A DNA stretch of 64,000 bases. Source: Gammaproteobacteria bacterium. GTDB taxonomy: Bacteria; Pseudomonadota; Gammaproteobacteria; GCA-001735895. The DNA is taken from NCBI GenBank assembly GCA_029862005.1, contig JAOTYD010000008.1, positions 4,472 through 68,471 on the forward strand, read 5' to 3'. The position numbers and the translations under genes are program-made. Below, piece after piece: positions 4,561 to 42,110 of the stretch. Within the stretch, counting starts at the first letter, position 1; every line of letters starts with the position of its first letter. A model generated the notes under the pieces. That model worked only from the letters and a program-made list of their open reading frames with translations, searched no databases and was not told where the DNA came from.

Positions 4561-4618
4561 AATGTCGCCGTGAATCAAATATTCCCGCCGGGCCGCGCAG
4601 GTTCGCGAGAGAATGAGA

Positions 4619-16525: not shown

Positions 16526-17152
16526 TTATTGGGGAGTGGTCGCAGCCGGCGTAAATGACATGATCGAAATCGCTTCGTTGATCAGTAGTTTGGCCTGCTC
16601 ATGGTCGTTATACAAAAACAGCGTGTAGGCGTCGGCCATCTCGTTCCGATGCATGCCGATGATCAGCGCATTGCGATAGTCGGCGGCGAAATCAGGATTG
16701 ATATCGAATGCCGAGGCCGCGGCCCAGTTGGCGTTGAATTTATCCAGCGCCTCCGCCTCGGGAAAAGTACTGGTTGCGGTCTCACCGCCGACTGACAAGC
16801 GATTAGTGATCGATTCGAACAGCAGCGGGAACAGGTGGTTGGGTTCGGGCGCGGCATTATGTGGGTCGTTGTATTCGATCTCGATACGGTTCAGCGGGCG
16901 CACGATAAATCGGACTTCGAGCGCTCCCGATTCATGCCTTAACGCGTATTCGTAGGGCAGAATGGCGTTCGCCTGCGTCGGCTGGTCAATATATTGAGTT
17001 TGCCGATGCATGCGCAATCCAGCTTCCCGCAGCAGCCGATCGAAGGCTGCGCGGGCATCCTTTTCCGCCGCATCTGCGGCCGTGGGTGTGCCCAGGTGAA
17101 TCAGCACCAGCAGGGGCCCGAGCAACGAGGTTATGAATTTTCGGATTGCCAT
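16526..17152 (-). CDS. Secreted hypothetical protein
   Basis: Sec signal peptide MAIRKFITSLLGPLLVLIHLGTPTAADA. Last gene of the cytochrome operon. Confidence 0.5.
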   Translation of the reverse strand: MAIRKFITSLLGPLLVLIHLGTPTAADAAEKDARAAFDRLLREAGLRMHRQTQYIDQPTQANAILPYEYALRHESGALEVRFIVRPLNRIEIEYNDPHNAAPEPNHLFPLLFESITNRLSVGGETATSTFPEAEALDKFNANWAAASAFDINPDFAADYRNALIIGMHRNEMADAYTLFLYNDHEQAKLLINEAISIMSFTPAATTPQ

Positions 17153-17904
17153 TGTTTCAATAGGTCCTCGGCCACCTGCGCCCAACTCGCTTCCGGCGAC
17201 AGGGTCAGAAAGTGTTGCAGGTCTTTAACCGCGCTGTTCCGGTCGCCAAGGGCTTCGTGGGTCGAGGCGCGATTGAAATAGGCTGCCGGCACCTCCGGCT
17301 CGAGCTCGACGCAACGATTGAAATCAACCAGCGCCAGATCGTATTTTTCGGCTTCGAAATGCAGGCTACCGCGATTGAAATAGGCCGCGACAAATTTCTG
17401 GTCCAGCTCGATCGCACTATCCAGATCTCGCCGCGCATCGTCGTTGCGGCCGAACTGGCGATAGGCCTGGGCGCGATTGGTCAGCAGGATCGGGTCGTGC
17501 GGGTTCAATTCGACCGCGCGATTGAGATCGGCTAATGCCAGGCTGGTTTGCTGGTTTTGCAGAAACAGGCTCGAACGAACGCTCAACAGCATTGTATCGT
17601 TGGGGAATTTGCCGAGTGCCTCGTTTAATGTCTCCAGCGCCAGTGGTGCGCGCCCTTCGTCGAGATGCTGTAGCGCTACCTGAACGAGTTTGTCGGGACT
17701 CAGGCTGGCGTGCGGATCTTTCTGCTTATGTGCGCCGGCACCAGTAGTTTGTTGCCGGGGTGATTCGAGAAAAGACTTCATTTCCTCGCTTAACCCGGTT
17801 TCCTGGGCTAGCACAGCTTTATCCACGAGGACTGCGCCTGCAACGAATACCAGCATCCCTGCCGCAAACCACCCGGCAAAATGGGTTGAATCTCTGGCCG
17901 ACAT
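17131..17904 (-). CDS. Membrane-anchored TPR-repeat protein
   Basis: N-terminal TM helix, then at least five TPR units (AYFNRG/AYFNRA repeats). ATG lies 2 nt after the cytochrome stop. Confidence 0.7.
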   Translation of the reverse strand: MSARDSTHFAGWFAAGMLVFVAGAVLVDKAVLAQETGLSEEMKSFLESPRQQTTGAGAHKQKDPHASLSPDKLVQVALQHLDEGRAPLALETLNEALGKFPNDTMLLSVRSSLFLQNQQTSLALADLNRAVELNPHDPILLTNRAQAYRQFGRNDDARRDLDSAIELDQKFVAAYFNRGSLHFEAEKYDLALVDFNRCVELEPEVPAAYFNRASTHEALGDRNSAVKDLQHFLTLSPEASWAQVAEDLLKQWQSENS

Positions 17905-17906
17905 GT

Positions 17907-20285
17907 TTATTCCTTGCTGTAAGCCTGCAGCATCTTGTTCATCAACTCGATATGCTGCGCGTCGGTCAGGCGACCGGGCTCGGACACCTTGGACCACAGA
18001 TCGGCATTGGTCATTTCACGGTGGCAACCCATGCACAGTCCGGTGCGATCCATTGCATCGCGCACCTCTTGTGGCAGCGCGCGCGACAGCGGCCAGTGCG
18101 AGCCTACCGTTTGTGTCTGTTGGCCGTCCTTGATAATCGTGGACAAGTCAAAATCAAGCGCCTCGATTTTGGGTATCTGGATCTTGAAGTTGCTCGGAAT
18201 GGGTTTGCCGGTGCGCTGATCGATCAGGTCCTCAACCACGTTCTCGGTGTAGCGCAGCGAGAACACACCACCGGAGATACCGTAACCCTGGGCTTTCGGA
18301 TTGTTGTGGCAGCTTTCGCAGGTACGGGCCTTGCGCTGCGCCGAGTGTGGCTGCACCGGCGCCATGTCGAGGCCGAGCGGCACGCGCTCCTGTCCCAGTT
18401 CCTTCTGCTCGTCGTAGGCCATTGCGATCTGGTTATGCGCCACAGTGCTACCGTCGCGCGCCCGCACGGTCCAGATAACCTGGCATCCCGGCATCAGCGG
18501 AGTCACGCGACCCTCACCGTTGATGCCGAGCACTGGCTCTTCCCAACGCAGGTAGGAACGGGTTTCGGAGACCTTGCCCGGGCTCTGGATGCCCTTGGTG
18601 CCGAGCGGTGATTCCGCGGTGGAACCATCCGGGTAGCGCAGCGATCCGGAGGCGATCCAGTCGGTGTCTTGCTTCGGCTTGCCGTTTTTATCCGGGCCGT
18701 AGTCGACGTCGACGTGGCAGCCGTAACACTGCGGTACCCAGGACGCGTGGCAGGCGTAACACTCGAGGCTCTCGGCGTGTTTCTTGACGCTTGCCATCGC
18801 CACCATTGCCTGAGAGTTGCGCCAGGCATCATCTTCGGCCAGCTTTTTCAGCAGCGGCACCTTGAAATCGTTGCCGGTAGCCGAGTGCATGATGACCGTA
18901 TCGCCATCCTTGACCACGTTGCCGTAGGGGTTGCCGCGCGCGCTCAGCAGATAACCGTCCTTCTTGTCGTAAACGGTCGCAAATGCCGCGGTCTCCTGCA
19001 GCAGGCTGTTGGCGAGGCCGCGCGGCGAGTTACCAATCGACTTGGCGAATTCTTCGCCGTGACCGAGTGGCAGCTCCCATGGGTACTCTTCCGGCGTTCC
19101 ATGACAGTCCTGGCACTCGACCTCGACCTGCGCCAGCGTAGTGCCCGGGATATTGCCGTCACCGTGCATGTCGATCGTGGTGTGGCAATCCTGGCACAGC
19201 AAGCCGCCTTCAGGGTTTTCCGGACGGCTCTTGATCTGGTGATGCAGGTCGTCGGAAATAAACAGGTAATTCTTGGTATGCAGCTTGGGCTGCTTGCCGC
19301 CGGTCTCGCTGTAGGGTGAGCCGTAGGGGAATTCCATCAGGCCCTGGTAGGTCACGCCGATGCGCTTGCCGCGGTTATGGCACGAATTGCAGGTTTCGAC
19401 CGGGATACCGGAATAGGTCGTGTCGCCGACCGTGACCTTGGATTTACGCGTGGCCTGGATCTGATGGGTCAGCATGTGACCTTTCTGCGTCTTGTCGATG
19501 GTGGGATCACCGCCCTCGTATATGCCTTCGTTACCGTAGGGGATGTGGCAGGAAGAACAGCCCTGGCCGCGATAATCACCGCGCTTTTCACGCCCCTTGA
19601 CGGTGACGTGACAACGCTGGCACTGCTGGCGCTGATAGGTAAAGCCGGCCAGCTTCGGATCTTTCTCGATCTCGTCGACGCTGGGTTGCGGGATTTGCGC
19701 CAGTTCGGTCGGAAACTGTTCCTTATGTGCCGCAATCATGTCCTTCATGTAAGCCTTGTAGGCGTCGGTGCCGACGCTTGGAACAGGTCCGTCGCCGTCC
19801 TTGACGTCGTAATTACCCCACGGCACCTTGTGGTTTTGCACTTCGGGGATGCCCCAGGTGTGCAGATTACCCTGGATTTTACCGGCCTCGGTGTTCATCA
19901 GGGATTTTTCGAGGCGTTCTTCATAGCCGGCATGGCAAGCGCTTTGCCCACAGGTGAACTTGTTAATATCCATCGCGCCAGGGTCGGGGTAGAAGGTTTG
20001 CGGACCCTTGAAGTCGACCAGTGACTGAGGCGATCCTTCGTGTGCCTTGGCTGCGTCGCTGGCGGTGGGATCACCACCGTGGCACATCACGCAGCCGGCG
20101 GTATCGCCATGCACGGCGCTCAGCGAATTGATCAGTTGCAGCATCGCACTCGATTCCTCGCGAATCGACTCGATGCCGTTATGGCAGGCAAGACAGCCCG
20201 AGACAGCCGCAGGCGACGGGCCCGGATTGATCCAGAGAAGCGAAAATAAAATGATTACCCCAAGTGCCTTGCCGTACCGGTCCAT
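17907..20285 (-). CDS. Periplasmic multiheme cytochrome c (11 CXXCH motifs plus one CX4CH)
   Basis: Signal peptide; motifs CLACH, CVMCH, CGQSACH, CQRCH, CSSCH, CNSCH, CQDCH x2, CYACH, CYGCH, CESCH and CMGCH read from the translation. Confidence 0.85.
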   Translation of the reverse strand: MDRYGKALGVIILFSLLWINPGPSPAAVSGCLACHNGIESIREESSAMLQLINSLSAVHGDTAGCVMCHGGDPTASDAAKAHEGSPQSLVDFKGPQTFYPDPGAMDINKFTCGQSACHAGYEERLEKSLMNTEAGKIQGNLHTWGIPEVQNHKVPWGNYDVKDGDGPVPSVGTDAYKAYMKDMIAAHKEQFPTELAQIPQPSVDEIEKDPKLAGFTYQRQQCQRCHVTVKGREKRGDYRGQGCSSCHIPYGNEGIYEGGDPTIDKTQKGHMLTHQIQATRKSKVTVGDTTYSGIPVETCNSCHNRGKRIGVTYQGLMEFPYGSPYSETGGKQPKLHTKNYLFISDDLHHQIKSRPENPEGGLLCQDCHTTIDMHGDGNIPGTTLAQVEVECQDCHGTPEEYPWELPLGHGEEFAKSIGNSPRGLANSLLQETAAFATVYDKKDGYLLSARGNPYGNVVKDGDTVIMHSATGNDFKVPLLKKLAEDDAWRNSQAMVAMASVKKHAESLECYACHASWVPQCYGCHVDVDYGPDKNGKPKQDTDWIASGSLRYPDGSTAESPLGTKGIQSPGKVSETRSYLRWEEPVLGINGEGRVTPLMPGCQVIWTVRARDGSTVAHNQIAMAYDEQKELGQERVPLGLDMAPVQPHSAQRKARTCESCHNNPKAQGYGISGGVFSLRYTENVVEDLIDQRTGKPIPSNFKIQIPKIEALDFDLSTIIKDGQQTQTVGSHWPLSRALPQEVRDAMDRTGLCMGCHREMTNADLWSKVSEPGRLTDAQHIELMNKMLQAYSKE

Positions 20286-20469: not shown

Positions 20470-20548
20470 AGATCCCCGCTGGTGCGGGGATGACGCCGAG
20501 TCGTTACGTCATTCCCGCCGGATGCGGAACACTTAGCGGGAATCTCAC
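20470..20548. repeat. REP-like hairpin repeat, site B (ATCCCCGC-TGGT-GCGGGGATGACG ... CGTCATTCCCGCCGGATGCGG ... GCGGGAAT)
   Basis: 8-bp stem hairpin plus repeated core motifs. Located between the aminotransferase 3' end and the cytochrome promoter. Confidence 0.45.
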
Positions 20549-20592: not shown

Positions 20593-21915
20593 TCAGGATT
20601 GATTGAATTCGCGGCAGGCAGCGTCGAGGCCACGCAGGGTTTGTTCGAGATCCTGCGCGGTATGTACGGTGGATACGAAACGTCGCACGCCGGGCAACAC
20701 GTATTGCCCTTGCTTCATCAGCAGGGTATCGAACTTGCGCATTGAAGCCTGGTCGCTGGCGAGTATATCGGCCTGGTTGCGCGGGGTTTTATCCATGAAC
20801 AGGATTTGCCACAGCGAGCCGGTATGCTCGGCGATCGCCGGGATATCGTGCTGGTCGAGGACCTTTTGCGTTTCGCGACAGAGATCATCGGCAAAACCGT
20901 TCATGCGCTTGTAGACGCCGGGTTTGCCGAGTTCGTCGAGCATTGCCATGGTCGCAGCGGCCGCGACGGGGTTACCGTGCAGAGTGCCGTTGAAATAGGT
21001 ATACCCCGGTTGGCCTTTCAGTTTTGGATCGGACAGGCCGATGACGTCCGCGCGTCCGGCGATACAGGACAGGGGACCGCCACCGCCGACGACTTTGCCG
21101 TGGGTCGAGAGATCGGGCTTGACGTCGTACCGTTGCTGGGCGCCGCCGTAGCTCAGACGAAAACCGGTGACGACCTCGTCGAGCACGAACAGGATGTCGT
21201 ATTCATCGCAGATTTTTCGGATGCCATGCAGGAATTCGGGTTCGGCCGGGATGATGCGCTGTACCGGCTCGGCAAAAATGGCGGCGATATCGGCGTGATG
21301 TTCGGCAACAATCTTGCGCAGGGTTTCGAGGTCGTTGTAGGGGCAGACCAGCATCGTTGAAACCGTCGCTTCGGGCTGTCCATAGGAATCTGGCGTGCCC
21401 TGCGGGTAGGCGCCGGTTTCTTTCGGAAAAGTCGACACGATCGCGTAATCGTGGTTACCGTGGTAGGCGCCCTCGAACTTGAGGATCTTGTTACGCCCGG
21501 TAAACGCGCGTGCCAGACGCATCGCGTAGCCAGTTGCTTCCGAGCCAGTGGTTGCGTAGGCGATTTTCTCGGCGCAGGGTATATCGTTAACCAGACGCTC
21601 GGCCAGGTGCACGGCGATATCGTTCAAGGAGCCGAACATGTGCGCACCACGATCCAGCTGCGCCTTGGTGGCTTCGACCACGGCGGGGTGCGAATGTCCA
21701 AGAATCAGTGCGCCGGCACCGCCGACGTAATCGATATACTCGTTGCCGTCGACGTCCCACATGCGCGAACCCTTGCCATGCGAGTAAATCAGGCGAATGT
21801 CATCGGCCAGCGAATAGCTGCCGAGGCCCGAGCCGGGTAAAACACGGTCGGCAATTGCAAACAGGTCGCGTTGCGACATGCTGCCGGGTGATTGTTTAAC
21901 TGCATGTGATGACAT
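20593..21915 (-). CDS. Class III (omega) PLP-dependent aminotransferase
   Basis: GSA-aminomutase/omega-transaminase-like blocks (YVGGAGALILGHSHP, DEVVTGFR). Confidence 0.85.
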   Translation of the reverse strand: MSSHAVKQSPGSMSQRDLFAIADRVLPGSGLGSYSLADDIRLIYSHGKGSRMWDVDGNEYIDYVGGAGALILGHSHPAVVEATKAQLDRGAHMFGSLNDIAVHLAERLVNDIPCAEKIAYATTGSEATGYAMRLARAFTGRNKILKFEGAYHGNHDYAIVSTFPKETGAYPQGTPDSYGQPEATVSTMLVCPYNDLETLRKIVAEHHADIAAIFAEPVQRIIPAEPEFLHGIRKICDEYDILFVLDEVVTGFRLSYGGAQQRYDVKPDLSTHGKVVGGGGPLSCIAGRADVIGLSDPKLKGQPGYTYFNGTLHGNPVAAAATMAMLDELGKPGVYKRMNGFADDLCRETQKVLDQHDIPAIAEHTGSLWQILFMDKTPRNQADILASDQASMRKFDTLLMKQGQYVLPGVRRFVSTVHTAQDLEQTLRGLDAACREFNQS

Positions 21916-21942
21916 GATAGGGACTCCAGAAACCTGCTTGGT

Positions 21943-23040
21943 TTAGCCGACTGCCTCACGCAGCCATTGGTGTAGTTTAAAAATTGACAATTCGTTGTAT
22001 ATCCCGCCCTCGGGATTCAAGACCAGTGGCCCGGGTTTATAACCGCGCGAATTCATCCCGCGCTGAACTTCCCTGACGATATCCAGGTCTTCCTGGAACG
22101 TGGTTTCACGATCGTTCTCGATGACCTTTTGCAGGGTTTCGTCTACCTCGCCATCGTTCGAGTAAAATGTACGGAATACGCGCACGTCATCAACCGCGAG
22201 CGGGCGCCAGGAAAAGCTGTTGACCATCCCGCCGGGATAAAACTGGATCGAAGTGGCCGGCCACAGGTAAAAGCTGCCGTAAGCGGCACCGCTGACGTCA
22301 TACCAGGCATCTTCGCTGTGCGAGGCTTCGGAGGTATGGTGCAACACCTTGATATCTCCGTAAGGCATAATCGAGTAGGTATCGGGATCGATGATGCCCT
22401 TTGCAAACGAGGGATGGCAATTCGGGCAGTGGTAACACTCGTTATAGTTTTCGACCGCGACGAACCAGTTGCAGCCCTCGTCGGCGGTATGGTGGTAGGC
22501 ATACTTGCGTTGCTCGAGGTCAGGGCACAGTTTAAGCATTTCATCGCGAATTCCCGGGTAGGACTTATCCATGCTTGTAGCCTCTGGATCGAGGTTGATT
22601 AACAGGAAACCGAGAAAATTCTCGAGCCTGATTTCGGTCAAGCAGATCTTGGAAGCATTGAAACCGGGCACCTTGTTCGCATGGGGTGCAGCTTTTAACT
22701 GTCCCCGCAGGTCATAAGACCAGGCATGGTAAGGGCAGACCAGTAGCTTTTTATTACCGCTGCCCTCGGCAAGTTTGTGCCCACGATGCTGGCAGACGTT
22801 GTAAAACGCCTTGATCCCGCCCTCGCGGGTATGCGTGATGAGGATGTCCTGGTCGTAGATTTCGAGCGTCAGGAAATCACCGGGTTTACCGACCTGGCTC
22901 GAATGGCAGGCCATCAACCAGTTCTTGTAAAACACTTCGTCAACGATGCGCCGGTAAAGATTGGGATCGGTAAAGTATTTCGCATCGAGTCCCATTACCG
23001 GGACACCATCTGCAACCACTTTCAAATCAGGATTCGTCAT
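21943..23040 (-). CDS. Rieske [2Fe-2S] non-heme iron oxygenase, alpha subunit (GbcA/CntA/Stc2-like N-demethylase or C-N lyase type)
   Basis: Rieske CQHRGH ... CPYHAW and mononuclear iron site NECYHCPNCH. Start placed at MTNPDLK; the ORF could extend to 23103. Confidence 0.8.
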   Translation of the reverse strand: MTNPDLKVVADGVPVMGLDAKYFTDPNLYRRIVDEVFYKNWLMACHSSQVGKPGDFLTLEIYDQDILITHTREGGIKAFYNVCQHRGHKLAEGSGNKKLLVCPYHAWSYDLRGQLKAAPHANKVPGFNASKICLTEIRLENFLGFLLINLDPEATSMDKSYPGIRDEMLKLCPDLEQRKYAYHHTADEGCNWFVAVENYNECYHCPNCHPSFAKGIIDPDTYSIMPYGDIKVLHHTSEASHSEDAWYDVSGAAYGSFYLWPATSIQFYPGGMVNSFSWRPLAVDDVRVFRTFYSNDGEVDETLQKVIENDRETTFQEDLDIVREVQRGMNSRGYKPGPLVLNPEGGIYNELSIFKLHQWLREAVG

Positions 23041-23935
23041 AAATGTTTTCCTCCCAACGCGCGGAATGAAACGCTTCAACGGAGGCGCTTGCCGCGTCGC
23101 CACCGCGTACTACCAGCAGTGCGCACAGGCTTTCGAGCAGTGCGATCACCGCTGAATTGGAATGAAAGAACTGCGGGGTATGGGTTGGGGAGACCAGTCC
23201 CAGGTCGGCCTCGCGGCACAGCGTTGCCGCGTTGCTGTCGGTTACGCCAATGACTTTTGCCCCTTTCCTTTTTGCCAGCTTTACCGCGGCCAGCGTATCG
23301 CGGCGATAAGGCTGGAATGTCATCGCCAGCAGGCAGTCGCGCTCGTCCATGCGAATCAGGTCGTCCGACGGCAGGCTGCCGTGACGTGGTGACAGGATAA
23401 AATGATCGAAGCCCATGCGCGCGACATACCAGAAGTTGTAGGCGAGCGGATAGGCGAGGCCGAGGCCGAGCACGTAAACCCGGCGCGCGTTGATCATCCA
23501 GTCGACCGCGCGCTCGAGATCCTGCACCGATTGCTGCTCGAACATCTTTTCGGTGTTGTCGAGACAGGCCTCGGCCATGCTGCCGAACACCGCGGTGCTG
23601 CCGCCCTCGCGATCCATCTGTTGCAGCCAGCGGACGCGGTCGGGTGACGAGCCGGTACCGCCGCGTACGAAATCACGGAAACGCTCGCGCATGGCTTCGT
23701 AGCCTTCAAATCCCAGGTGACGTGCCAGGCGTACGAAACTGTTCGGATGAACCTCTGCATTCGTCGCCAGCGTGCGCATCGATTGCAGCCCGACTTCATG
23801 TGGATGATCGATGATATAGCGCGCGCACAACTGTAGCTGACCGGGCAGGTTATCGAACTCGGCCAGCAAGCGCTTGAGCACTTCTTCCTGGGACTGCGGC
23901 AATCCAGCTTCGAGAATCTTAAATTTTTGCTGCAT
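23027..23935 (-). CDS. RpiR/MurR-family transcriptional regulator (HTH + SIS domain)
   Basis: HTH_6 region (VGLQSMRTLATNAEVHPNSFVRLARHLGF) and a C-terminal SIS domain. Start at MQQKFKIL. Confidence 0.8.
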   Translation of the reverse strand: MQQKFKILEAGLPQSQEEVLKRLLAEFDNLPGQLQLCARYIIDHPHEVGLQSMRTLATNAEVHPNSFVRLARHLGFEGYEAMRERFRDFVRGGTGSSPDRVRWLQQMDREGGSTAVFGSMAEACLDNTEKMFEQQSVQDLERAVDWMINARRVYVLGLGLAYPLAYNFWYVARMGFDHFILSPRHGSLPSDDLIRMDERDCLLAMTFQPYRRDTLAAVKLAKRKGAKVIGVTDSNAATLCREADLGLVSPTHTPQFFHSNSAVIALLESLCALLVVRGGDAASASVEAFHSARWEENIYDES

Positions 23936-23965
23936 TTGTGACAATTGTGCACTTGATTTAAATAA

Positions 23966-23981
23966 TGATACAAGTGTATCA
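23966..23981. promoter_or_regulatory. Palindrome TGATACA-AG-TGTATCA in the RpiR / DMGDH-like divergent intergenic region; candidate operator
   Basis: Perfect 7-bp arms read directly. An ACAATTGT palindrome is 25 bp away. Confidence 0.4.
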
Positions 23982-24025
23982 TCAGCGGATCTTTCGATGC
24001 AACCAAATTTTATCGGAGTCAGCTG

Positions 24026-26459
24026 GATGCAAAGCAAGGCGAATATCGTCATTATCGGCGGCGGCGTTATGGGCTGTTCGCTTGCCTATCACCTGTGCAA
24101 GGAAGGCGAGACCGATATTGTGCTGCTGGAAAAGGCGGAGTTGACCAGTGGCTCGACCTGGCATGCGGCTGGCCAGATTACGCACTCGGTCAGTCACTAC
24201 AGCCTCGCCAAGATGGCGGCTTATGGCACCGAGCTCTACCCGCGCCTCGAGGACGAGACCGGGCAATCCTGTACCTGGCACGGCAGCGGCAGCCTGCGTA
24301 TCGCCTATACCCAGGACGAAGTCGACTGGATCAAGTACACGCTATCGGTGGGCAAGGGCCTCGGTCACGAAATGGAAATCATCGGGCCTGAGCGTATCGC
24401 CGAGCTGCACCCTTTCTATAATCTCGACGGTGTAATGGCCGCGCTCTATACCCCGCACGATGGGCATGTCGACCCGGCCGGTGTTACCTTTGCGATGGCC
24501 AGGGGGGCACGCATGATGGGTGGTACCGTGATTCGTCAAAATCGGGTCACGGGCATCACACGCACCGGCGATACTTTCGTGGTACACACCGGGCAGGGTG
24601 ACATCGAGGCCGACCGGGTGGTCAACTCGGGCGGTACCTACGCGCGTCAGATCGGGGAGTGGGTGGGGCTGAATTTACCGATCGCAAACATGCTGCACCA
24701 CTACCTGATCACCGACACGGTGCCCGAATTCCAGGCTCTTGAAAAAGAGTTGCCGGTAATTCGGGACGACTCGCAGGTTTCGGGTTATATCCGCATGGAG
24801 CAGAAGTCGGGCCTGATCGGGATTTATGAAAAGGCAAACGCGGCCTCGGTCTGGGATGACGGCACGCCGTGGGAATCCGAGAACGAACTGTTCGAGCCCG
24901 ATTACGACCGCATCATGCCGTGGCTTGAAAACGCGCTCGAGCGCATGCCGGTTCTCGCCGACAAGGGCATCAAGAGCGTCGTGCATGGGGCCATTACCCA
25001 TCCGCCAGACGGCAACATGCTGCTGGGGCCGTCCGGGGTAAAGAATTTCTGGGTTTGCTGTGGTTCGCAGGTCGGCATTGCCTGGGGCCCGGGCGCGGGG
25101 AAGTACCTCGCGCAGTGGATGGTGCACGGTGCCGCGGACGTATCGATGCGCAGTTTCGACCCACGCCGCTTCGGTGCCCGCATCGATGATGAATACCGCG
25201 TCAACAAGGCGAAGGAGGATTACCTGCTGCGCCACGAAATCCCGTTTCCGCATCTGGACCGTCCAGACCTGCGGCCGTCACATTCCAGGCTTTCGCCTCT
25301 CTACGAGATCCTGAAAGACAAGGGAGCAGTTTATGAAGATGTGTATGGCTGGGAACGTCCCTACTGGTTCGCGGTCAATGGCGTCGAGCAAAAGCATATC
25401 GAGAGTTTTCGGCGCAGTGCGTTATTCGACATCATCGGCAACGAGGTACGCGGTATGCGCGCCCACGCCGGTATCGCGGATTTGACCGCGTTTGCCAAGG
25501 TCGAGATCAGTGGCGCCGATGCCGAGGCTTACCTCGACCGAATCCAGTCGAACAAGGTGCCGCAAAAAGAGGGCAGTGTCACGTTGACCTACCTGGTGAT
25601 GGGTAACGGGCGCATCGAGGGCGAGGCCACGATCGTCAAGCTTGGCGATAATCATTACTACATGGTTTACGCCGCGGTACGCGAAGCCGCGCTGTTGAAC
25701 TGGATGCAGGAGGAGGTTCGGGCGGACGAAACGGTCACCTTTAGCAATGTTTCAGAAAACTACGGTGTCATAATGCTGGCCGGTCCGGCGTCACGCAGAA
25801 TTCTCGGCGGATGTACCGACGTCGCCCTCGATAATACAAGTTTCCGCTGGTTATCGACGCAACTTATCACCGTGGCCGGAATAACCGACGTGCGCGCACT
25901 GCGCGTAACTTATACCGGTGAACTCGGTTGGGAACTGCACGTGCCGATGGCGGGTATGCTCGATGTCTACAGCGCGCTGGTTTCGACCTCGCACAGTGAG
26001 GGAATGGTACATATCGGTTCGGCCACGCTGAACGCGGTGCGCATGGAGAAGGCTTATCGTTCCGGGTCGGAAATCACCAATGAAGTCACCATCACCGAGG
26101 CTGACGTGGCGCGTTTCGCGCGGGATGGCGAATTCCAGGGTGCCGAGTATTCACTCAAGTCTGCCGAGCGCTGGGTACTCGCTTATCTCCAGCTCGATGA
26201 GCCCGCTGCGGACGCAGTGCAGTGCGATCCACTGGGTTCCGAGTCGGTATGGCACCGGGGAAAGCCGGTAGGGCAGATCTCGTCCGGTGGCTATGGATAC
26301 GACCAGGGCAAGTATCTTGCCTTTGCCTATATCAGGCCCGAACTGAACCAGGTGGGTAATGAATTCGAAGTGCTGGTCATGGGTGAATCACGCCGCGCCG
26401 TAATCGTCGAGCAATGCGTGTATGATCCACAGAACCTTCTGCCTCGTTCGGAAGAATAA
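24026..26459 (+). CDS. Dimethylglycine/sarcosine dehydrogenase-family FAD-dependent N-demethylase with a folate-binding aminomethyltransferase domain
   Basis: FAD motif IVIIGGGVMGCSLAYHL and C-terminal GcvT-like domain; 810 aa. ATG 9 nt after a GGAG. Confidence 0.85.
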
Positions 26460-26634: not shown

Positions 26635-27015
26635 ATGGACAAAGATTTATTTGAAAAAGGCCTGGCCAAGCGCAAAGGCACGTTGGGCGCGGAGTATGTT
26701 GAAAAGAACCTGGCCGCGGCCGATGATTTCACGCGCCCTTTCCAGGAGGCAATGACCGCATGGTGCTGGGGTTTCGGCTGGGGCGACGAGGTAATCGAAC
26801 CGAAGACGCGTTCGATGATGAACCTGGCGATGATCGGCGCGCTCGGCAAGATGCATGAATGGGAAATCCACTGCCGTGGTGCGCTCAATAACGGCGTCAG
26901 CAAGGAGGAGATTCGAGCCATTATTCACGTGGTTGGAATTTACTGCGGTGTGCCGCAGTCGCTGGAGTGTTTTCGCGTGGCGCGCAAGGTGCTGGAAGAG
27001 GCTGGCGAGCTATAA
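26635..27015 (+). CDS. Carboxymuconolactone decarboxylase (CMD/AhpD-like) family protein
   Basis: Family-typical size and blocks (TAWCWGFGWGDEV, HCRGALNNGVSKEEI). GAGGAG Shine-Dalgarno upstream of the start. Confidence 0.7.
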   Translation: MDKDLFEKGLAKRKGTLGAEYVEKNLAAADDFTRPFQEAMTAWCWGFGWGDEVIEPKTRSMMNLAMIGALGKMHEWEIHCRGALNNGVSKEEIRAIIHVVGIYCGVPQSLECFRVARKVLEEAGEL

Positions 27016-29096: not shown

Positions 29097-30215
29097 ATGA
29101 AGATTACCGGCATTAGCGTTTGGCAGCTCGACCTGCCTTTGCACAAGCCTTACTGGCTCTCCGGCGGCAGGCTCAAGTTCGAGCAACTCGATTCCACCAT
29201 TGTTCGCATCGATACCGACGCTAACGTATCGGGTTGGGGCGAGGGTTGTCCCTGGGGTGTGACTTACCTGCCGGCCTTCGGCAAGGGTATACGCGCCGGT
29301 ATCGAGGAACTCGCACCCCTGCTTATCGGCAAAGATCCGCGCCAGGCCGATTCGATCAACCGTGTCATGGACCTGGCGTTGCCGGGACATCCGTATGTCA
29401 AGTCGGCGCTCGACATTGCCTGCTGGGACATCGCCGCAAAAGCAGCCGGTTTGCCTCTATGCGAACTGCTAGGCGCGCGCGAACCCGATCCGGTGCCCAT
29501 CGCATCGAGCGTATCCACCGGCGGCCCGCAGGAAATGCTCGACGAGGTGCAGCGTTTCCGCGACCTGGGTTATCGCGTGCATTCCTGTAAGGTCGGCGCC
29601 GATGTACACCAGGATATCGAGCGCATCAATTTACTCGCCGCCAACGAACGTGCCGGTGAGATTATTTTTTACGACGTCAACCGCGCCTGGCTGCCGCGCG
29701 AGGCAATCACGGTAATGAACGCGGTTTCCGGGCTGACTTCGTGGTTTGAGCAACCCTGCGAAACGCTCGACGAGATCGCACAGGTGCGTCGGCATACCAC
29801 TTATCCAATCGGGGTCGACGAGGGCTTGCACGGCATCGATGACCTGATTCGTATTCAGCGCGACGGTATCGCCGAGGTCGTGAATATCAAGATTAACCGC
29901 GTCGGCGGTCTGACCAAGACGCGACGCCTGCGTGATTTCTGCCTGGCAACCGGTATCACGATGCTGATCATGGATACCGGCGGTACCGTCGTATCCGACA
30001 CCGCCGTCGCGCATTTTGCACAAACTATCCCCGCGGCATTCTGCCAGGGTGTCTGGTCCTGCCAGGAGATGGTCAGCGTCCATCCGGCACCCGGACAAGG
30101 CGTGCGTAACGTGGAAGGCTGCTTCAGCGCGCCCGACCTGCCGGGTCTCGGGGTTGAACCGGAGCTCTCGCTGCTCGGAGACCCGATTGCCATGTATGGT
30201 CGGGAATCTGGCTGA
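29097..30215 (+). CDS. Enolase-superfamily enzyme (mandelate racemase / muconate lactonizing enzyme family)
   Basis: MR/MLE N-terminal capping domain and barrel blocks (KSALDIACWD, VNIKINRVGG). Confidence 0.8.
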   Translation: MKITGISVWQLDLPLHKPYWLSGGRLKFEQLDSTIVRIDTDANVSGWGEGCPWGVTYLPAFGKGIRAGIEELAPLLIGKDPRQADSINRVMDLALPGHPYVKSALDIACWDIAAKAAGLPLCELLGAREPDPVPIASSVSTGGPQEMLDEVQRFRDLGYRVHSCKVGADVHQDIERINLLAANERAGEIIFYDVNRAWLPREAITVMNAVSGLTSWFEQPCETLDEIAQVRRHTTYPIGVDEGLHGIDDLIRIQRDGIAEVVNIKINRVGGLTKTRRLRDFCLATGITMLIMDTGGTVVSDTAVAHFAQTIPAAFCQGVWSCQEMVSVHPAPGQGVRNVEGCFSAPDLPGLGVEPELSLLGDPIAMYGRESG

Positions 30216-30250: not shown

Positions 30251-31033
30251 CTAGATTGACTGCCAGACCTGGTACAGGTCAGGATCAGCCAGGATGCCGC
30301 GCAGCGCATCGTCCAGAATAGTCGCCCAGCGCTCGGCACCTTCCTCGGTGTCGACGAGATCCTGGCGGATTTCAATGGAAACATGTGGCAACCCGGCTGC
30401 CTCGGCGTGATGATCAATCGTATAGTCGGCGGGGTGTTTGCCCGAGTAAGGTTCGTTATCCCCGATGTTAAAACCTTCGGGATGCGCACGCAGGTTTGCC
30501 ATTAGTGGTACCGGAATGCGCGGGTCTTTGTCCCATAGAATTCCCGCATGCCAGGGGCGCACAAAACCGGCCATTTGTGGCGTGAAGCTATGTATCGAAA
30601 TGAATGCGGGCACCACCCCCTGTTCCCTGAAGCGATGCAGTTCCGAATCGATGGCTTTTCGATAGGGCGTGTAAAAGCAATGAATGCGCTCATTGCGATG
30701 CGCTTCCGACATGCTCTGATTACCCGGAATTACCCGATCATCACTGGTTTCCGGCATCACACTGGGATCCTCAAGGCTGCGATTGAGGTCGACAACAAGT
30801 CGGGAATAGCCAGCCAGTACGGCGGGTGCATCGAGATGCTCGGAAAGATGATTGATCAACTTGCGGGTGCCGATATCGTAGGCAATATGCTGTTGCAGTT
30901 CTGACTTGTCGAGACCGAGGCTGTCCAGCATTTTCGGCATGACGTTACTGACATGATCGCCGGTAAGCAGGACCTTGGCCTTTCCCTGGTCGTTGATTAC
31001 CGTGTATGGCGGAGGGTCATCGGGTCCGATCAT
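30251..31033 (-). CDS. N-formylglutamate amidohydrolase (FGase) family hydrolase
   Basis: FGase family pattern (LLTGDHVSN ... ISIHSFTP). Confidence 0.7.
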   Translation of the reverse strand: MIGPDDPPPYTVINDQGKAKVLLTGDHVSNVMPKMLDSLGLDKSELQQHIAYDIGTRKLINHLSEHLDAPAVLAGYSRLVVDLNRSLEDPSVMPETSDDRVIPGNQSMSEAHRNERIHCFYTPYRKAIDSELHRFREQGVVPAFISIHSFTPQMAGFVRPWHAGILWDKDPRIPVPLMANLRAHPEGFNIGDNEPYSGKHPADYTIDHHAEAAGLPHVSIEIRQDLVDTEEGAERWATILDDALRGILADPDLYQVWQSI

Positions 31034-31303
31034 TGATTCGATAGTGCTCGCTGGTCAAATTCGAGGTTTACATAATGCGCTTAAGCGGCATCGGGAATTC
31101 GGCAAGAATAAAGGCTCTTTCCGCGACGGTCCAGTATTCGCCGCAGGCCCGTTTGCGCACAATGCACGGGTCGATTCCCTTGTAACCCGGGTATTAGAGG
31201 CACGCGAACGCCTTGCTGCGTTAATCGATAGTGATCCGAATTCTGGTACTGCCATCGATCAGTGGTATATTAAGCGGCCCAGCCAGGGATTACCGAGCTC
31301 GCC

Positions 31304-32329
31304 ATGCACGCAGAACCGCAAGATCTAGACCAGCAACCGGTCGCCCGACAGGCCTCGATAGCGTGGCAGGTGCCCGTTATCGATGTTGCCGAGGTATTTG
31401 CGGATTCATCCAGTGATGCCGCGGTAAGTGCGATTGATCAAATTGCCGATGCTTGCAAGACCTGGGGATTCTTCCAGGTCGTTAATCACGATATACCTGC
31501 CACGCTTATCGACGACGTCTGGCAGCAAACCCATGCCCTGTTCGCGTTACCGGTCGAGGAAAAGCTAAAGATAGTCCGCAACAAGGACAACCCATGGGGT
31601 TTTTACAATAACGAATTGACCAAGAACCAGCGCGACAAGAAAGAAGTTTTCGATTTTACCCGCGAGGGCGTCGACCCGATTTATCATCAGAGCAATCGAT
31701 GGCCCGCACATCAGCCGGAATTCAAAGCCACGATGATGTCTTATCTCGAGGCCTGCACCGAACTTTCGCTGAATCTGCTCGAAGCTTTTTGCCTGGGGCT
31801 GGATTTACCCGCCAATTTCATGCATGACGATTTTGCGACCAACCACACCGGTTTCGTGCGGCTTAATTACTACCCGGTCAAGGATCCGATGGCCGGTCTG
31901 GCGATCGATCATCAGCCGACAGCAGACCTCGGTATCCATCATCACACCGATGCCGGAGCCTTGACGGTCTTGCTGCAGGATCAGGTCAGCGGTCTGCAGG
32001 TCTACCGCGACGGGTATTGGTATGACATCCCGACGGTTGACGGCGCGATGGTGATCAATACCGGTGACATGATGCAGGTCTGGTCCAACGATATCTACAA
32101 GGCCGCCATTCATCGCGTGCTGGCGATGGATACCCGTGAACGTTACAGTATTCCATTTTTCTTTAATCCGGCAGCAAACTGCAAAGTCTGTCCGTTACCC
32201 TCGGTGGTCAACGCGCAGAATCCTAGTCGCTATGACGCTATCGAGTGGGGCAGTTTTCGGGGCAAGCGCTCTGACGGTGACTATGCGGACTACGGTACCG
32301 AGGTTCAGATTTCGCAGTACCGAAAATAG
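31304..32329 (+). CDS. 2-oxoglutarate/Fe(II)-dependent dioxygenase (IPNS/DIOX_N type)
   Basis: HxD...H iron-binding triad (HHHTDAG ... AAIHRV) and RxS 2OG-binding region. Confidence 0.8.
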   Translation: MHAEPQDLDQQPVARQASIAWQVPVIDVAEVFADSSSDAAVSAIDQIADACKTWGFFQVVNHDIPATLIDDVWQQTHALFALPVEEKLKIVRNKDNPWGFYNNELTKNQRDKKEVFDFTREGVDPIYHQSNRWPAHQPEFKATMMSYLEACTELSLNLLEAFCLGLDLPANFMHDDFATNHTGFVRLNYYPVKDPMAGLAIDHQPTADLGIHHHTDAGALTVLLQDQVSGLQVYRDGYWYDIPTVDGAMVINTGDMMQVWSNDIYKAAIHRVLAMDTRERYSIPFFFNPAANCKVCPLPSVVNAQNPSRYDAIEWGSFRGKRSDGDYADYGTEVQISQYRK

Positions 32330-32365
32330 TATCAATTTCCAGATCGACGAATTCCATAGCAGCAG

Positions 32366-32857: not shown

Positions 32858-32872
32858 GAACGAGTTGCGGCA

Positions 32873-36222: not shown

Positions 36223-37443
36223 TTAACCCAGCGCCAGGACTTTCAAATCGGTTTCCGGGTCGGCGACCTCGGCGGGTGTTGGATTTTTGCCCGCCGCGAT
36301 AATCCGGGTGCCGAAGGCATATGATTTGGGCTCGTTCATCGCGTCGATTGCGAGTAATTCGTCATCACGGTAGTACCAGACCGACATAATCGAAGGATCG
36401 GCGCCGGGGCGAAACACGGTTTGATTGTGACCCTGGCTGAGGCCGACGATCTGCAGACGGCAATCGTACTGTTCCGACCAGAACCACGGTAACGCGGTAT
36501 AGGTCACTGCTTCTCCGGCCAGGACACGTGCCACCAGGTCTCCCTGGTCGGCTGCGTTTTGTACTGACTCGAGACGAATATGCTGACCGTTGCGGACAAA
36601 GTTGGTGCAATCGCCGGCAGCATAAATATTCGGATCGGAGGTCTGGCAGATTTCGTTGACACGGATCCCGTTGTCACAATCCAGCCCGGCTGCCTGCGCG
36701 AGCCCGGTATTGGGGCTGCTGCCGATACCCACCAGGACCAGGTCGGCATCGATCACTTCGCCGGTTTCGAGGGCGGCACCGCTTACGATACCGCCTTCGC
36801 CGAGCAGGCTGGTCATGCGCACAGACTCCCGTAAATCTACACCATGCCCAAGGTGCAGCTCACGAAAGTAACTTGACGTTGCCGCGGCAGCGACGCGTTG
36901 CAGGATACGCTCGGCCATTTCGAGCAGTGTGACTTCGAGCCCCATCTGGCGGGCGCTCGCGGCTGCCTCCAGTCCTATATATCCACCGCCGATAATGAGC
37001 AGCTTGCGTCCGGGCTGAAATTCGGGGGACATTTTGTCGGTATCATCGATGCTGCGTAACGTGAATACCCGGTCCAGGTCCCCACCATTTGCGACGGGAA
37101 GGCTGCGCGCACTGGAACCGGTGCATAACAGTAGCTTGTCATATTCGATCGATTCGCCGCTGGTGGTGACAACCTTGCGGTCATCACGATCGATCGCGTC
37201 AATGCGGGAGTTAAGGCGCAGGTTGATGTTCTGCTCCTGGTACCATTCCGGTGGGCGAATAAACAGGCGTTCACGGTCGAGTTCACCGATCAGGTATTTC
37301 TTGGAAAGCGGGGGGCGCTGATAGGGTAGATATGATTCTTCGCCAATCAGCAAGACCGGTTGCTTGCTGGCTAGCGCCACGTGGCGTGTTATGAAGGAGG
37401 CCGCCGCCTGACCCGCACCAACAATGACAATCGGGGCGGTCAC
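36223..37443 (-). CDS. FAD-dependent NAD(P)H:ferredoxin reductase (putidaredoxin/rubredoxin reductase type)
   Basis: IVIVGAGQAA FAD motif, a second GG dinucleotide fold and a C-terminal reductase dimerisation domain. Confidence 0.8.
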   Translation of the reverse strand: MTAPIVIVGAGQAAASFITRHVALASKQPVLLIGEESYLPYQRPPLSKKYLIGELDRERLFIRPPEWYQEQNINLRLNSRIDAIDRDDRKVVTTSGESIEYDKLLLCTGSSARSLPVANGGDLDRVFTLRSIDDTDKMSPEFQPGRKLLIIGGGYIGLEAAASARQMGLEVTLLEMAERILQRVAAAATSSYFRELHLGHGVDLRESVRMTSLLGEGGIVSGAALETGEVIDADLVLVGIGSSPNTGLAQAAGLDCDNGIRVNEICQTSDPNIYAAGDCTNFVRNGQHIRLESVQNAADQGDLVARVLAGEAVTYTALPWFWSEQYDCRLQIVGLSQGHNQTVFRPGADPSIMSVWYYRDDELLAIDAMNEPKSYAFGTRIIAAGKNPTPAEVADPETDLKVLALG

Positions 37444-37446
37444 GGA

Positions 37447-37767
37447 TTACTCCGGTTCGGGGACGTAGAGTATCAATCCATCCAGCGCCGACGAGGCAAC
37501 TATCTGGCAGCTCAGACGGCTATTATCCTCTCGTTCGACATCAGTCATTTCGAGCATGGTGTCTTCGATATCGTCGATCTCTCCTGTTTTCTCGAACCAT
37601 TCGGGATCGACAAACACGTGGCAGGTGGCGCAGGAAAGACAACCGCCACATTCGCCCTCGATGTGCGGAACGTTGTTCGCCGTCGCAGCTTCCATCAGGT
37701 TCAAGCCGTCTTTTACATCAGCGCTGATTTCGCTGCCATCTTCCATTTTCCAGGTGATATTGGCCAT
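37447..37767 (-). CDS. [2Fe-2S] ferredoxin, adrenodoxin/putidaredoxin type
   Basis: CGGCLSCATCH ... C cluster ligands; 106 aa. Starts 4 nt upstream of the reductase. Confidence 0.85.
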   Translation of the reverse strand: MANITWKMEDGSEISADVKDGLNLMEAATANNVPHIEGECGGCLSCATCHVFVDPEWFEKTGEIDDIEDTMLEMTDVEREDNSRLSCQIVASSALDGLILYVPEPE

Positions 37768-37854
37768 GTTTTACTGCATATCGTGGATATCAAAGTCGCG
37801 TAATGTATCCTTTTTTGATGTCGATGTCTTTTCGAATTTTGCGCATCTGCGCGG

Positions 37855-41980: not shown

Positions 41981-42009
41981 TACACAGAATCCAATGACGT
42001 TATCTCCGC

Positions 42010-42110
42010 CGAAGCGGGGATCTCTAACTGATTGGCTACCAGTTTATACAAGATTCCCGCTTTCGCGGGAATGACTTTTTATGATCGTAAAGTCATTAAT
42101 CCTTGTATAG
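42010..42110. repeat. REP/MITE-like nested palindrome, site C (TATACAAG ... ATTCCCGC-TTTC-GCGGGAATGAC ... AATGACTTT-N10-AAAGTCATT ... CTTGTATA)
   Basis: Three nested perfect inverted repeats plus GCGGGGATC upstream. Lies between the permease and the sulfatase. Confidence 0.5.

Follow-up and report, generated by a model that had tools for sequence, protein, structure and literature searches.

We describe a divergent gene unit at positions 20,593 to 26,459 of a 64,000-nt stretch of DNA (hereafter the window, the whole stretch that was analysed), which comes from a contig of an uncultured gammaproteobacterial metagenome-assembled genome (MAG; GenBank assembly GCA_029862005.1, contig JAOTYD010000008.1, positions 4,472 to 68,471). 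The unit belongs to a conserved and probably horizontally mobile gene cluster that encodes a Rieske oxygenase, an N-demethylase of the dimethylglycine dehydrogenase (DMGDH) family, an aminotransferase, an enolase-superfamily enzyme, a CMD protein, and an RpiR regulator. With a probability of about 0.6, we propose that this cluster serves the catabolism of a carboxylated N-methylated ammonium compound, i.e., a betaine, most plausibly of the proline or hydroxyproline betaine kind; our confidence in any specific substrate is much lower than in this general statement. In the window, the cluster genes and the end of the minus-strand gene row are located as follows:

20472..20491, minus strand: terminator-like hairpin (8 pairs, 6 of them G-C, with a T-rich tail after it; consensus match only)
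20593..21915, minus strand: aminotransferase, class III (fold-type I), of the branch resembling glutamate-1-semialdehyde (GSA) aminomutase (440 aa; Aminotran_3, E 5e-60)
21943..23040, minus strand: Rieske non-haem iron oxygenase alpha subunit (365 aa; Rieske and Ring_hydroxyl_A domains)
23027..23935, minus strand: RpiR/MurR-family regulator (302 aa; HTH_6 and SIS domains)
24027..26459, plus strand: DMGDH-family FAD- and folate-dependent N-demethylase (810 aa; DAO, FAO_M, GCV_T, and GCV_T_C domains)
26635..27015, plus strand: CMD/PcaC-like protein (126 aa; CMD domain, E 1e-18), 3' of the DMGDH-like gene
29097..30215, plus strand: enolase-superfamily (MLE subgroup) enzyme (MR_MLE_N and MR_MLE_C domains)

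The original prediction had placed the regulator, oxygenase, and aminotransferase genes on the minus strand with the DMGDH-like gene opposite them, and domain scans bear out the identities of all four at these coordinates. Its limits for the unit were too narrow, as the CMD and enolase-superfamily genes also belong to the conserved set. The Rieske open reading frame (ORF) spans 21943-23103 on the minus strand, and its most likely true start is the ATG at 23040, because homologues are 360-366 aa long and the protein has 365 aa in independent gene calls for this contig. The RpiR gene overlaps the start of the Rieske gene by 14 nt, 27 nt lie between the Rieske gene and the downstream aminotransferase gene, and the hairpin is found about 100 nt past the aminotransferase stop codon. 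Due to this overlap, the short gap, and the hairpin, the three genes look like one minus-strand operon, with rpiR first and the aminotransferase gene last. The divergent ATG codons of rpiR and the DMGDH-like gene enclose a spacer of 91 bp (23936-24026).

We explored the conservation of this arrangement in a sample of 80 genomic loci encoding Rieske relatives, which were searched with the window proteins and in which all ORFs were clustered. Genes were counted when they lay within 9 kb of the Rieske gene in the 70 loci of the clade that contains the window oxygenase (clade loci); many of the contigs are truncated, so these counts are lower bounds. The DMGDH-like gene is near the Rieske gene in 44/70 clade loci, the RpiR gene in 36/70, the aminotransferase gene in 29/70, the CMD gene in 19/70, and an enolase-type gene of the same kind (MR_MLE) in 15/70. 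The 20 Rieske rows outside the clade are without these neighbours, except for paralogues in or beside cluster loci (e.g., L007.1), and the gene association is specific to one Rieske clade. The recurring order is CMD ← DMGDH-like ↔ RpiR → Rieske → (medium-chain dehydrogenase/reductase [MDR] alcohol dehydrogenase) → (enolase-superfamily enzyme) → aminotransferase, with the optional genes in parentheses. Among the clade loci, the DMGDH-like orthologues (47-91% identity) are almost always divergent, the RpiR orthologues (34-88%) sit directly upstream of the Rieske gene, and the aminotransferase orthologues (51-92%) adjoin it; the enolase-type orthologues, in many loci and on plasmids, either have the Rieske gene on one side and the aminotransferase gene on the other or sit beside the DMGDH-like gene.

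The gene set occurs in about 40 loci from Gammaproteobacteria, Alphaproteobacteria, and Acidimicrobiia, and also on plasmids of cultured bacteria. The gammaproteobacterial carriers are uncultured, and many of them come from sponge symbiont lineages (Poriferihabitaceae, Arenicellales, and Granulosicoccaceae), while Pelagibius and the cultured Paralimibaculum aggregatum NKW23 are among the alphaproteobacterial carriers. In a search of annotated plasmids, the closest relatives (42-45% identity) are carried by plasmid pTHAF8_b of Roseovarius sp. THAF8 and by plasmids of Mesorhizobium sp. 131-2-5, Ruegeria sp. SCSIO 43209, and Sulfitobacter sp. SK012, of which the Sulfitobacter plasmid is conjugative. 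On these plasmids the order is aminotransferase ← enolase-type ← (alcohol dehydrogenase, ADH) ← FAD oxidoreductase (DMGDH-like) ↔ RpiR → Rieske → aldehyde dehydrogenase (ALDH) → CMD. The Ruegeria version is without RpiR and ALDH, the Mesorhizobium version (L082) has additional electron-transfer flavoprotein (ETF) genes, a ferredoxin reductase, and a GbdR-like regulator, and the Roseovarius version has an additional PotD-like ABC transporter; ALDH and MDR alcohol dehydrogenase genes are also present in the clusters of other genomes. The linkage of the Rieske, DMGDH-like, aminotransferase, and RpiR genes, first noticed in the window alone, is kept across phyla.

Among solved structures, the best relative of the Rieske protein is CntA (6y8j; 194 bits, nearly full length). 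Stc2 and 3n0q reach about 135 bits (136 for Stc2), mostly over the Rieske/N-terminal half, and aromatic dioxygenases score at most 94 bits, over the Rieske half only. Its cofactor residues are C83, H85, C102, H105, E201, C202, H204, C205, H209, and D318. Seven of these (C83, H85, C102, H105, H204, H209, and D318) align with CntA and are kept in 90/90 locus-derived Rieske sequences, and the bridging Glu and the Cys-x-x-Cys pair are present in the motif N-Y-N-E201-C202-Y-H204-C205 (E205, C206, and C209 in CntA). The group V quaternary-amine oxygenases have as their hallmarks the Rieske ligands, a 2-His-1-Asp iron site, a bridging Glu, and a Cys-x-x-Cys pair (Quareshy et al., PMC7948474, PMC10952381). 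With its match to CntA, the bridging Glu, the Cys-x-x-Cys pair, and the tyrosine described below, the window protein groups with these oxygenases and not with the aromatic ring-hydroxylating dioxygenases.

Public annotation (RefSeq and MAG product names) nevertheless calls the oxygenase an aromatic ring-hydroxylating dioxygenase, and the MR_MLE and CMD families are named after aromatic catabolism, so that the cluster could be taken for an aromatic-compound pathway with MLE-type and CMD-type enzymes as in the beta-ketoadipate route. We see hardly any chance for such a pathway. Besides the low, half-length scores of the aromatic dioxygenases and the presence of all group V hallmarks, neither a beta subunit nor a ring-cleavage dioxygenase is encoded in the four annotated plasmid clusters or among the scanned window ORFs of at least 150 aa; the MR_MLE enzyme is closest to HpbD and hydroxyproline dehydratase, not to CatB; and a DMGDH-like demethylase together with ETF fits amine metabolism. 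The annotation of the oxygenase as an aromatic ring-hydroxylating dioxygenase is probably misleading.

Tyr203 of CntA makes a pi-cation contact with the trimethylammonium group and divides clade Va, comprising CntA, choline monooxygenase, and OxyBAC, from clade Vb, comprising the demethylases GbcA, BmoA, and Stc2, which carry Asn (PMC7948474, PMC10952381). The equivalent residue in the window protein is Tyr199, whereas Stc2 (3vca) and 3n0q show Asn in the same column. Across the seven substrate-pocket positions, the correspondence between CntA and the window protein is Y203 to Y199, Y225 to Y222, F258 to Y254, N270 to Q266, Y295 to R290, Y315 to D310, and F319 to T314. The 70 clade members, some with as little as 34% identity, show hardly any departure from the resulting Y-Y-Y-Q-R-D-T signature, and all neighbouring clades, including CntA/YeaW and one Ruegeria clade, carry other residues at these positions. 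In a neighbour-joining tree, which is a rough one built on translations of high-scoring segment pairs and partial PDB sequences, the clade stands apart from CntA/YeaW and Stc2. Judged from these sequence comparisons, the protein is a group V oxygenase of a new subfamily of its own. We infer that the clade is isofunctional and acts on a substrate with both a quaternary nitrogen and a carboxylate, the latter because Arg290 takes the place of the carboxylate-contacting Tyr295 of CntA; the nearby Asp310 could pair with a hydroxyl or a second amine of the substrate.

An identity with one of the characterised group V enzymes was considered in each case and rejected. GbcA is the top NCBIfam match, but reaches only 155.8 bits against a cut-off of 670 (NF058607), over residues 37-240 only, and the window protein has Tyr in place of Asn. 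The same substitution argues against Stc2/HpbB1, and the alignment with Stc2 is strong only over residues 17-230 (125 bits), with about 10 bits for the C-terminal part. CntA/YeaW differs at five of the seven pocket residues, belongs to a separate clade in the neighbour-joining tree, and shows about 33% identity (YeaW). Thus, of the GbcA/CntA/Stc2 type named in the original prediction, the membership in group V stands, whereas an identity with any of the three enzymes does not, the clade and its pocket being its own. In the clade locus of an Arenicellales sponge MAG (L007, 3947-19652), a second Rieske gene carries the Asn (clade Vb) signature, and the cluster is flanked by an MttB-family gene (quaternary-amine methyltransferase-like), an EamA transporter gene, an isochorismatase-like gene, and an amidinotransferase-like gene.

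These pocket data also bear on a carnitine/gamma-butyrobetaine-type system, in which a CntA-like C-N cut would yield trimethylamine and an aldehyde that is then oxidised or transaminated, and in which the DMGDH-like gene would be a mere neighbour. CntA is the best solved relative, the equivalent of its Tyr203 is retained, and the alphaproteobacterial versions have an ALDH gene immediately after the Rieske gene, as does the YeaW cluster. However, the five replacements of CntA contacts (F258Y, N270Q, Y295R, Y315D, and F319T) are invariant in the clade, which is distinct from CntA/YeaW, and the window lacks a CntB/YeaX homologue, as do the fetched clade loci other than L018. The DMGDH-like gene, linked in so many of the clade loci and sharing the operator region, is not a chance neighbour, and BCCT transporter, carnitine dehydrogenase, and BKACE genes are absent here, unlike in the CntA-like carnitine-type cluster of M. 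amorphae (L086). We therefore regard a carnitine-type system as unlikely.

The second enzyme of the divergent unit had been described as an 810-aa FAD/folate N-demethylase of the dimethylglycine dehydrogenase family, and this family assignment is borne out. The domain order DAO - FAO_M - GCV_T - GCV_T_C is complete, and the protein matches rat DMGDH with 558 bits over residues 3-797, including the SGSTWHAAG flavinylation motif ELTSGSTWHAAG, whose His carries the covalent FAD. The search of curated models gave no equivalog-level match. With a full-length alignment to the mammalian enzyme, and with GbcA as the top NCBIfam match of the oxygenase, the cluster could be read as a glycine betaine pathway, with the Rieske protein in place of GbcA (betaine to dimethylglycine) and the 810-aa enzyme as a true dimethylglycine dehydrogenase. 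This is quite improbable: the GbcA score (156 bits versus 670) is confined to the N-terminal half, Tyr occupies the position at which GbcA, BmoA, and Stc2 have Asn, the aminotransferase, the enolase-type enzyme, CMD, and the aminoaldehyde ALDH would have no role in the conversion of betaine to glycine, and neither a sarcosine oxidase nor GbcB is present. Of the substrates first suggested for the catabolism of a quaternary or N-methylated amine, a betaine-type compound is retained, whereas glycine betaine and carnitine are poor candidates because the oxygenase falls below the GbcA cut-off, with Tyr for Asn, and departs from CntA in both pocket and clade.

For the aminotransferase, GSA aminomutases are the best solved relatives, followed by D-phenylglycine and beta-amino-acid transaminases. 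HemL (glutamate-1-semialdehyde 2,1-aminomutase) itself was rejected, as the protein scores 362.4 bits against a cut-off of 398 (NF000818) and 347.8 against 527 (TIGR00713), with the catabolic operon context also against it. In L007, a different class III aminotransferase occupies the position of the GSA-aminomutase-like one, and this non-orthologous replacement argues that transamination, not aminomutase chemistry, is the required function.

The enolase-type enzyme scores 356 bits on the cis-3-hydroxy-L-proline dehydratase model (cut-off 500), and its solved relatives are 3eez (435 bits), 2qdd (408 bits), 4mgg (304 bits), and HpbD, 4e8g (186 bits). The first two are uncharacterised structures from Ruegeria pomeroyi and Roseovarius, respectively, and we found no paper on their clade in the full-text literature that was searched; 4mgg is a cis-3-hydroxy-L-proline dehydratase, and HpbD is a betaine racemase/epimerase. 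The catalytic K165 and K265 and the metal ligands D193, E218, and D241 are conserved. HpbD binds betaines through Asp293 and Trp312 (P. denitrificans numbering); the putative cage residues of this type, D293 and W320, are kept only in the closest enolase-type subgroup, and their alignment to HpbD is uncertain. Several clusters pair the enolase-type gene with an MDR alcohol dehydrogenase gene, like hpbM-hpbD in Paracoccus.

In the alphaproteobacterial versions, the ALDH encoded directly 3' of the Rieske gene has its best scores with the models of betaine-aldehyde and aminobutyraldehyde dehydrogenases (about 400 bits, below cut-off), enzymes that accept aldehydes with a cationic nitrogen. The CMD protein, with 118 bits on the PcaC model (below the cut-off of 155.7), is found in the cluster of Gammaproteobacteria, Alphaproteobacteria, and Acidimicrobiia. 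A comparison of the window copy (26635-27015) with the alphaproteobacterial plasmid copies (L081, 14511-14891; L082, 14531-14911; L083, 13285-13668; L084, 14575-14958) gives 83-85% identity, whereas the other cluster proteins share only 39-56%, a pattern that suggests unusually strong constraint on the CMD protein.

The spacer between the divergent transcription units contains two conserved elements:

23965..23982, no strand: candidate RpiR operator, perfect palindrome ATGATACA-AG-TGTATCAT (conservation and promoter position)
23938..23953: second conserved block, GTGACAATTGTGCACT on the plus strand, with the core ACA-NN-TGT, 28 bp from the palindrome

The palindrome TGATACA-AG-TGTATCA, which had been noted in the shared promoter region, is indeed perfect (TGATACAAGTGTATCA at 23966-23981, with 8-bp arms when extended to 23965-23982). 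Perfect palindromes with 7-bp arms are common in the window (37 versus 21 ± 6 in shuffles), and a claim of significance from the window alone was rejected; it is the position of the palindrome and its conservation among related loci that make it significant. In 1.63 Mb of fetched loci plus the window, TGATACANNTGTATCA has 22 matches with at most 2 mismatches, and 21/22 fall in promoter regions of the DMGDH, RpiR, or Rieske genes, for the most part in the spacer between the divergent DMGDH and RpiR genes, at 41-48 bp from the DMGDH start codon. The conserved core of this candidate operator is TACA-NN-TGTA. At the same tolerance, the spacer site is the only copy in the window, with none in front of the enolase-type gene or the ferredoxin operon, and a 3-mismatch match at 11030 is at chance level. 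In three loci in which other genes split rpiR from the Rieske gene (L010, L011, and L022), the motif reappears upstream of the Rieske gene, and more distant loci, among them the plasmid versions and some of the Acidimicrobiia, have weaker variants with the core (G)TACA-NN-TGTA(C), often two of them 29-30 bp apart. Pairs with a spacing of about 29-30 bp are observed upstream of the Rieske or RpiR gene in L010, L011, L022, L023, L025, L027, L033, and L040.

The second block is kept in the window, L001, L002, and L006, with variants in L007, L010, L011, and L022, and the -35-like hexamers of both strands fall within it; it may be a second, half-strength operator, an overlap with the -35 elements, or both. 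A promoter-like site of the DMGDH-like gene, GTGACA-17-AATAAT (23938-23966; consensus match only), has its -10 element abutted and overlapped by the palindrome. As a repressor bound there would cover the -10 and the transcription start, this placement points to repression of the DMGDH-like operon by RpiR and, probably, of the regulator's own operon as well.

The regulator itself scores 59 bits on SIS and 30.4 bits on HTH_6 (cut-off 28.3). Its start at ATG 23935 agrees with an independent gene call (302 aa), is without a Shine-Dalgarno sequence, and would put a promoter-like TTGTCA-17-TAAGAT inside the rpiR ORF. An alternative GTG at 23881 has a better Shine-Dalgarno sequence (AGGAAG) before it, and RpiR homologues vary in N-terminal length. 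In SIS domains, the canonical loops GxGxS and SxSGxT hold the sugar phosphate. When aligned with NanR (4ivn), which has GVGASS and SSSGSTKE at these places, the window regulator shows GLGLAY and TFQPYRRDT, so the canonical phosphosugar-binding loops are absent from its SIS domain, and replacements of this type are kept among the cluster-linked RpiR proteins. The regulator may therefore sense a ligand other than a sugar phosphate. The presence of an SIS-domain regulator in an amine-related unit had been called unexpected; the domain is there, but it is no oddity of this genome, since the regulator is conserved along with the cluster and carries a non-canonical SIS loop.

As for the electron supply of the oxygenase, no reductase belongs to the conserved core. 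A YeaX/CntB-type reductase is found only in L018 and an HcaD-type reductase only in L082, the other loci searched being without one, which shows that different lineages recruited different reductase types. In L018, the gene at 4350-5294, just downstream of the DMGDH-like gene, encodes a PDR reductase with 38% identity to Klebsiella YeaX. The pair that the original prediction put forward for the window lies apart from the unit:

36223..37767, minus strand: candidate electron-transfer partners, namely a [2Fe-2S] ferredoxin (37447-37767) and an HcaD/AndAa-type ferredoxin-NAD+ reductase (36223-37443)

Domain scans of this pair give Fer2, Pyr_redox_2, and Reductase_C, and for the reductase the scores are 331 bits against AndAa and 312 bits against HcaD. 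It shares 45% identity with the reductase inside the Mesorhizobium cluster L082 and 49% with that in the carnitine-type cluster L086. No other client oxygenase for the pair was recognised among the window ORFs of at least 150 aa, nearly all of which were scanned. It is plausible that the pair serves the Rieske oxygenase; the suggestion gains indirect support from the same reductase type in L082 and in the CntA-like cluster. Outside the window, no locus shows the pair in synteny with the cluster.

The pair forms part of an operon-like row of three genes (36223-39312, minus strand) without an adjoining oxygenase, in which a group II pyridoxal-phosphate (PLP) decarboxylase, weakly diaminobutyrate/aspartate decarboxylase-like, has the ferredoxin and reductase genes downstream. 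PLP decarboxylases of the same family (26-27% identity) adjoin the cluster in L016, where the ORFs for RpiR, Rieske, ADH, and decarboxylase overlap, and lie near the cluster in L007.

As a plausible mechanism for the breakdown of such a betaine, the Rieske oxygenase would bind the quaternary nitrogen by means of a pi-cation contact to Tyr199 and the carboxylate by means of Arg290, and carry out a first, O2-dependent oxidative N-dealkylation, in which either a methyl group leaves as formaldehyde or, as with CntA, a C-N bond of the ring or chain is cut and an amino-aldehyde results. For this step, a reductase outside the conserved core would supply the electrons, and the ferredoxin and reductase at 36.2-37.8 kb are candidates for this role in the window. 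In a second step, the DMGDH-like flavoprotein would remove the remaining N-methyl group or groups and pass the one-carbon unit to tetrahydrofolate. The enolase-superfamily enzyme would then racemise, epimerise, or dehydrate at the alpha-carbon, like HpbD and cis-3-hydroxyproline dehydratase, and the class III aminotransferase would form a carbonyl compound, either from the primary amine set free or from an amino-keto acid with an opened ring. An ALDH of the aminoaldehyde type and an MDR dehydrogenase would complete the route in other genomes, and the CMD protein is possibly a decarboxylase. RpiR on the palindrome would repress both transcription units until a pathway metabolite binds to its non-canonical SIS domain.

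Two versions of the first step can be envisaged. In version (a), a Stc2/HpbB1-like demethylation would be followed by further demethylation and then by transamination of a primary amine or of a ring-opened keto-amine. In version (b), a CntA-like attack on the ring or chain carbon beside the nitrogen would yield a dimethylamino-aldehyde, with which the DMGDH-like enzyme and the aminoaldehyde-type ALDH would continue. Version (b) is favoured by the Tyr signature and by the coupling of the Rieske gene to ALDH, and the Hpb-like module favours a substrate of the proline or hydroxyproline betaine type. A betaine context is also found in the ETF genes and GbdR-like regulator of Mesorhizobium, in the betaine-aldehyde-type ALDH, in the pairing of ADH and MR_MLE genes, and in the MttB-family gene and Vb-type Rieske gene of L007.

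Several points weigh against the breakdown of a betaine as we propose it. The Tyr signature is that of the C-N-cleaving/hydroxylating clade Va, so that the first step may not be a demethylation, and a release of trimethylamine would leave the DMGDH-like enzyme without an obvious substrate. Proline itself is not an aminotransferase substrate, and a proline-type compound would need prior ring opening or dehydration. The reductase is not conserved (PDR-type in L018, HcaD-type in L082). The MR_MLE genes of different clusters are of at least two types (53% and 36-37% identity), and the CMD protein has no assigned role in the pathway. The assignment of the pocket residues comes from a sequence alignment with CntA, the start codon of rpiR is ambiguous, and RpiR repression is deduced only from the position of the operator, with the promoter scan giving a consensus match. 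Finally, we found no paper, experimental or other, on the cluster or its members in the searched full-text literature, whose limited coverage leaves such an absence unproven.

A more specific proposal, which we put forward tentatively and hold to be doubtful, is that the Rieske enzyme founds a new specificity class of group V oxygenases. It would attack a ring or chain carbon beside the quaternary nitrogen of a cyclic or hydroxylated betaine, by CntA-like chemistry instead of demethylation, yielding an N,N-dimethyl amino-aldehyde or amino acid; an aminoaldehyde-type ALDH or the transaminase would process this product, the DMGDH-like enzyme would be an N,N-dimethyl-amino-acid demethylase, and the SIS domain of RpiR would sense a carboxylated amine. 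If true, betaines would be degraded by a new route that is prominent in the symbionts of sponges and corals and under the control of an RpiR protein that has lost its phosphosugar loop.

The surroundings of the unit contain several other gene groups. Directly downstream of the aminotransferase gene (16526-20285, minus strand) are the genes for a 792-aa multihaem c-type cytochrome with ExtM/MtrC-like domains and, after it, a TPR protein, a neighbourhood kept only in the close relatives L002, L003, and L090. Between the enolase-type gene and an SBP-SLT fusion, four genes (30251-33955) encode a distant member of the N-formylglutamate amidohydrolase family, a 2-oxoglutarate-Fe(II) oxygenase, a GreA/GreB-like factor, and a second enolase-superfamily protein. 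This second MR_MLE gene (32873-33955) was rejected as a member of the unit, being of the mandelate racemase/acid-sugar dehydratase subgroup and Rieske-linked only in L008, where its orthologue (66% identity) is near Rieske and aminotransferase genes. A further group, at 40403-48337, comprises the genes for a sulfatase, a sulfotransferase-domain protein, and an ABC transporter of the Opp/Dpp type with two permeases, a binding protein (SBP_bac_5), and a fused double ATPase; this group could be an uptake unit for a sulfated compound. In the region 53081-63660, an aldehyde:ferredoxin oxidoreductase gene (AOR family; 55090-56940) adjoins a Pyr_redox_2 flavoprotein gene and is surrounded by a full set of molybdopterin cofactor genes (MoeA, ThiF/MoeB, MobA, MobB, MoaB-like, FdhD, and MoaA); members of the AOR family are normally tungsten or molybdenum enzymes.

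Methylated amines and betaines are major carbon and nitrogen currencies between marine animals, algae, and bacteria, and to our knowledge only few catabolic routes for them are known, namely those for glycine betaine, carnitine, choline, proline betaine, and, recently, homarine. The cluster described here is widespread: its carriers span several bacterial classes and include many MAGs associated with sponges, and plasmids of cultured roseobacters and of a rhizobium have it as well. Because its conserved Rieske pocket is unlike that of every characterised relative, it probably marks an unrecognised substrate or route. The Y-Y-Y-Q-R-D-T signature can be used for finding the enzyme in metagenomes, and the cultured carrier strains allow the pathway to be tested. 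In addition, the cluster offers a defined pair of operator and regulator, in which an SIS domain may be re-purposed for a ligand other than a sugar phosphate.

The closest known system is the proline/hydroxyproline betaine pathway (Hpb in Paracoccus denitrificans, Rhodobacter sphaeroides, and Pelagibaca bermudensis; Stc in Sinorhizobium meliloti). Both have an HpbD-related enolase-type enzyme, in both the first N-dealkylation falls to a group V Rieske oxygenase and the N-demethylation after it to a flavoprotein, and both have an MDR alcohol dehydrogenase gene beside the enolase gene, with ALDH and ETF in some versions. However, the oxygenase has the clade Va Tyr here and the clade Vb Asn in Stc2, the second demethylase is of the DMGDH type (FAD plus folate domain) here and of the HpbA/StcD type there, and a class III aminotransferase and CMD are conserved only here. 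The regulator is an RpiR/SIS protein instead of the LysR protein HpbR, and there is no dedicated reductase like HpbC1. In short, a relative of HpbD and a Rieske oxygenase are present, whereas HpbA, HpbC1, and HpbR are absent, with other families in their place.

With CntA/CntB (YeaW/YeaX), the cluster shares a Rieske oxygenase of the alpha3 type that lacks a beta subunit, the bridging Glu, the Cys pair, the pi-cation Tyr, and, in some versions, an ALDH gene next to it. It differs in five pocket residues (including Tyr295 to Arg and Tyr315 to Asp), in clade, and in the absence of CntB, a BCCT transporter, and a LysR regulator, and it is linked to a folate-dependent demethylase and a transaminase. 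The system of GbcAB with dimethylglycine and sarcosine demethylation likewise has a Rieske oxygenase followed by a flavin- and folate-dependent N-demethylase, and a GbdR-like regulator lies near the Mesorhizobium version of our cluster. In contrast to that system, the oxygenase here scores well short of the GbcA cut-off, with Tyr in the place of Asn, the demethylase is of the DMGDH type instead of DgcAB, and there are additional conserved enzymes and an RpiR regulator. This regulator resembles the RpiR/MurR proteins NanR (4ivn), HexR, and MurR in its HTH_6 and SIS domains, in a palindromic operator within a divergent promoter, and in its place at the head of the regulated operon, but it matches NanR with only 41 bits, its phosphosugar loops are replaced, and no sugar or kinase genes occur in the cluster. 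Taken together, the cluster shares its logic with the known betaine catabolic clusters and differs from them in the Rieske subfamily, the second demethylase, the transaminase, CMD, and the type of regulator.

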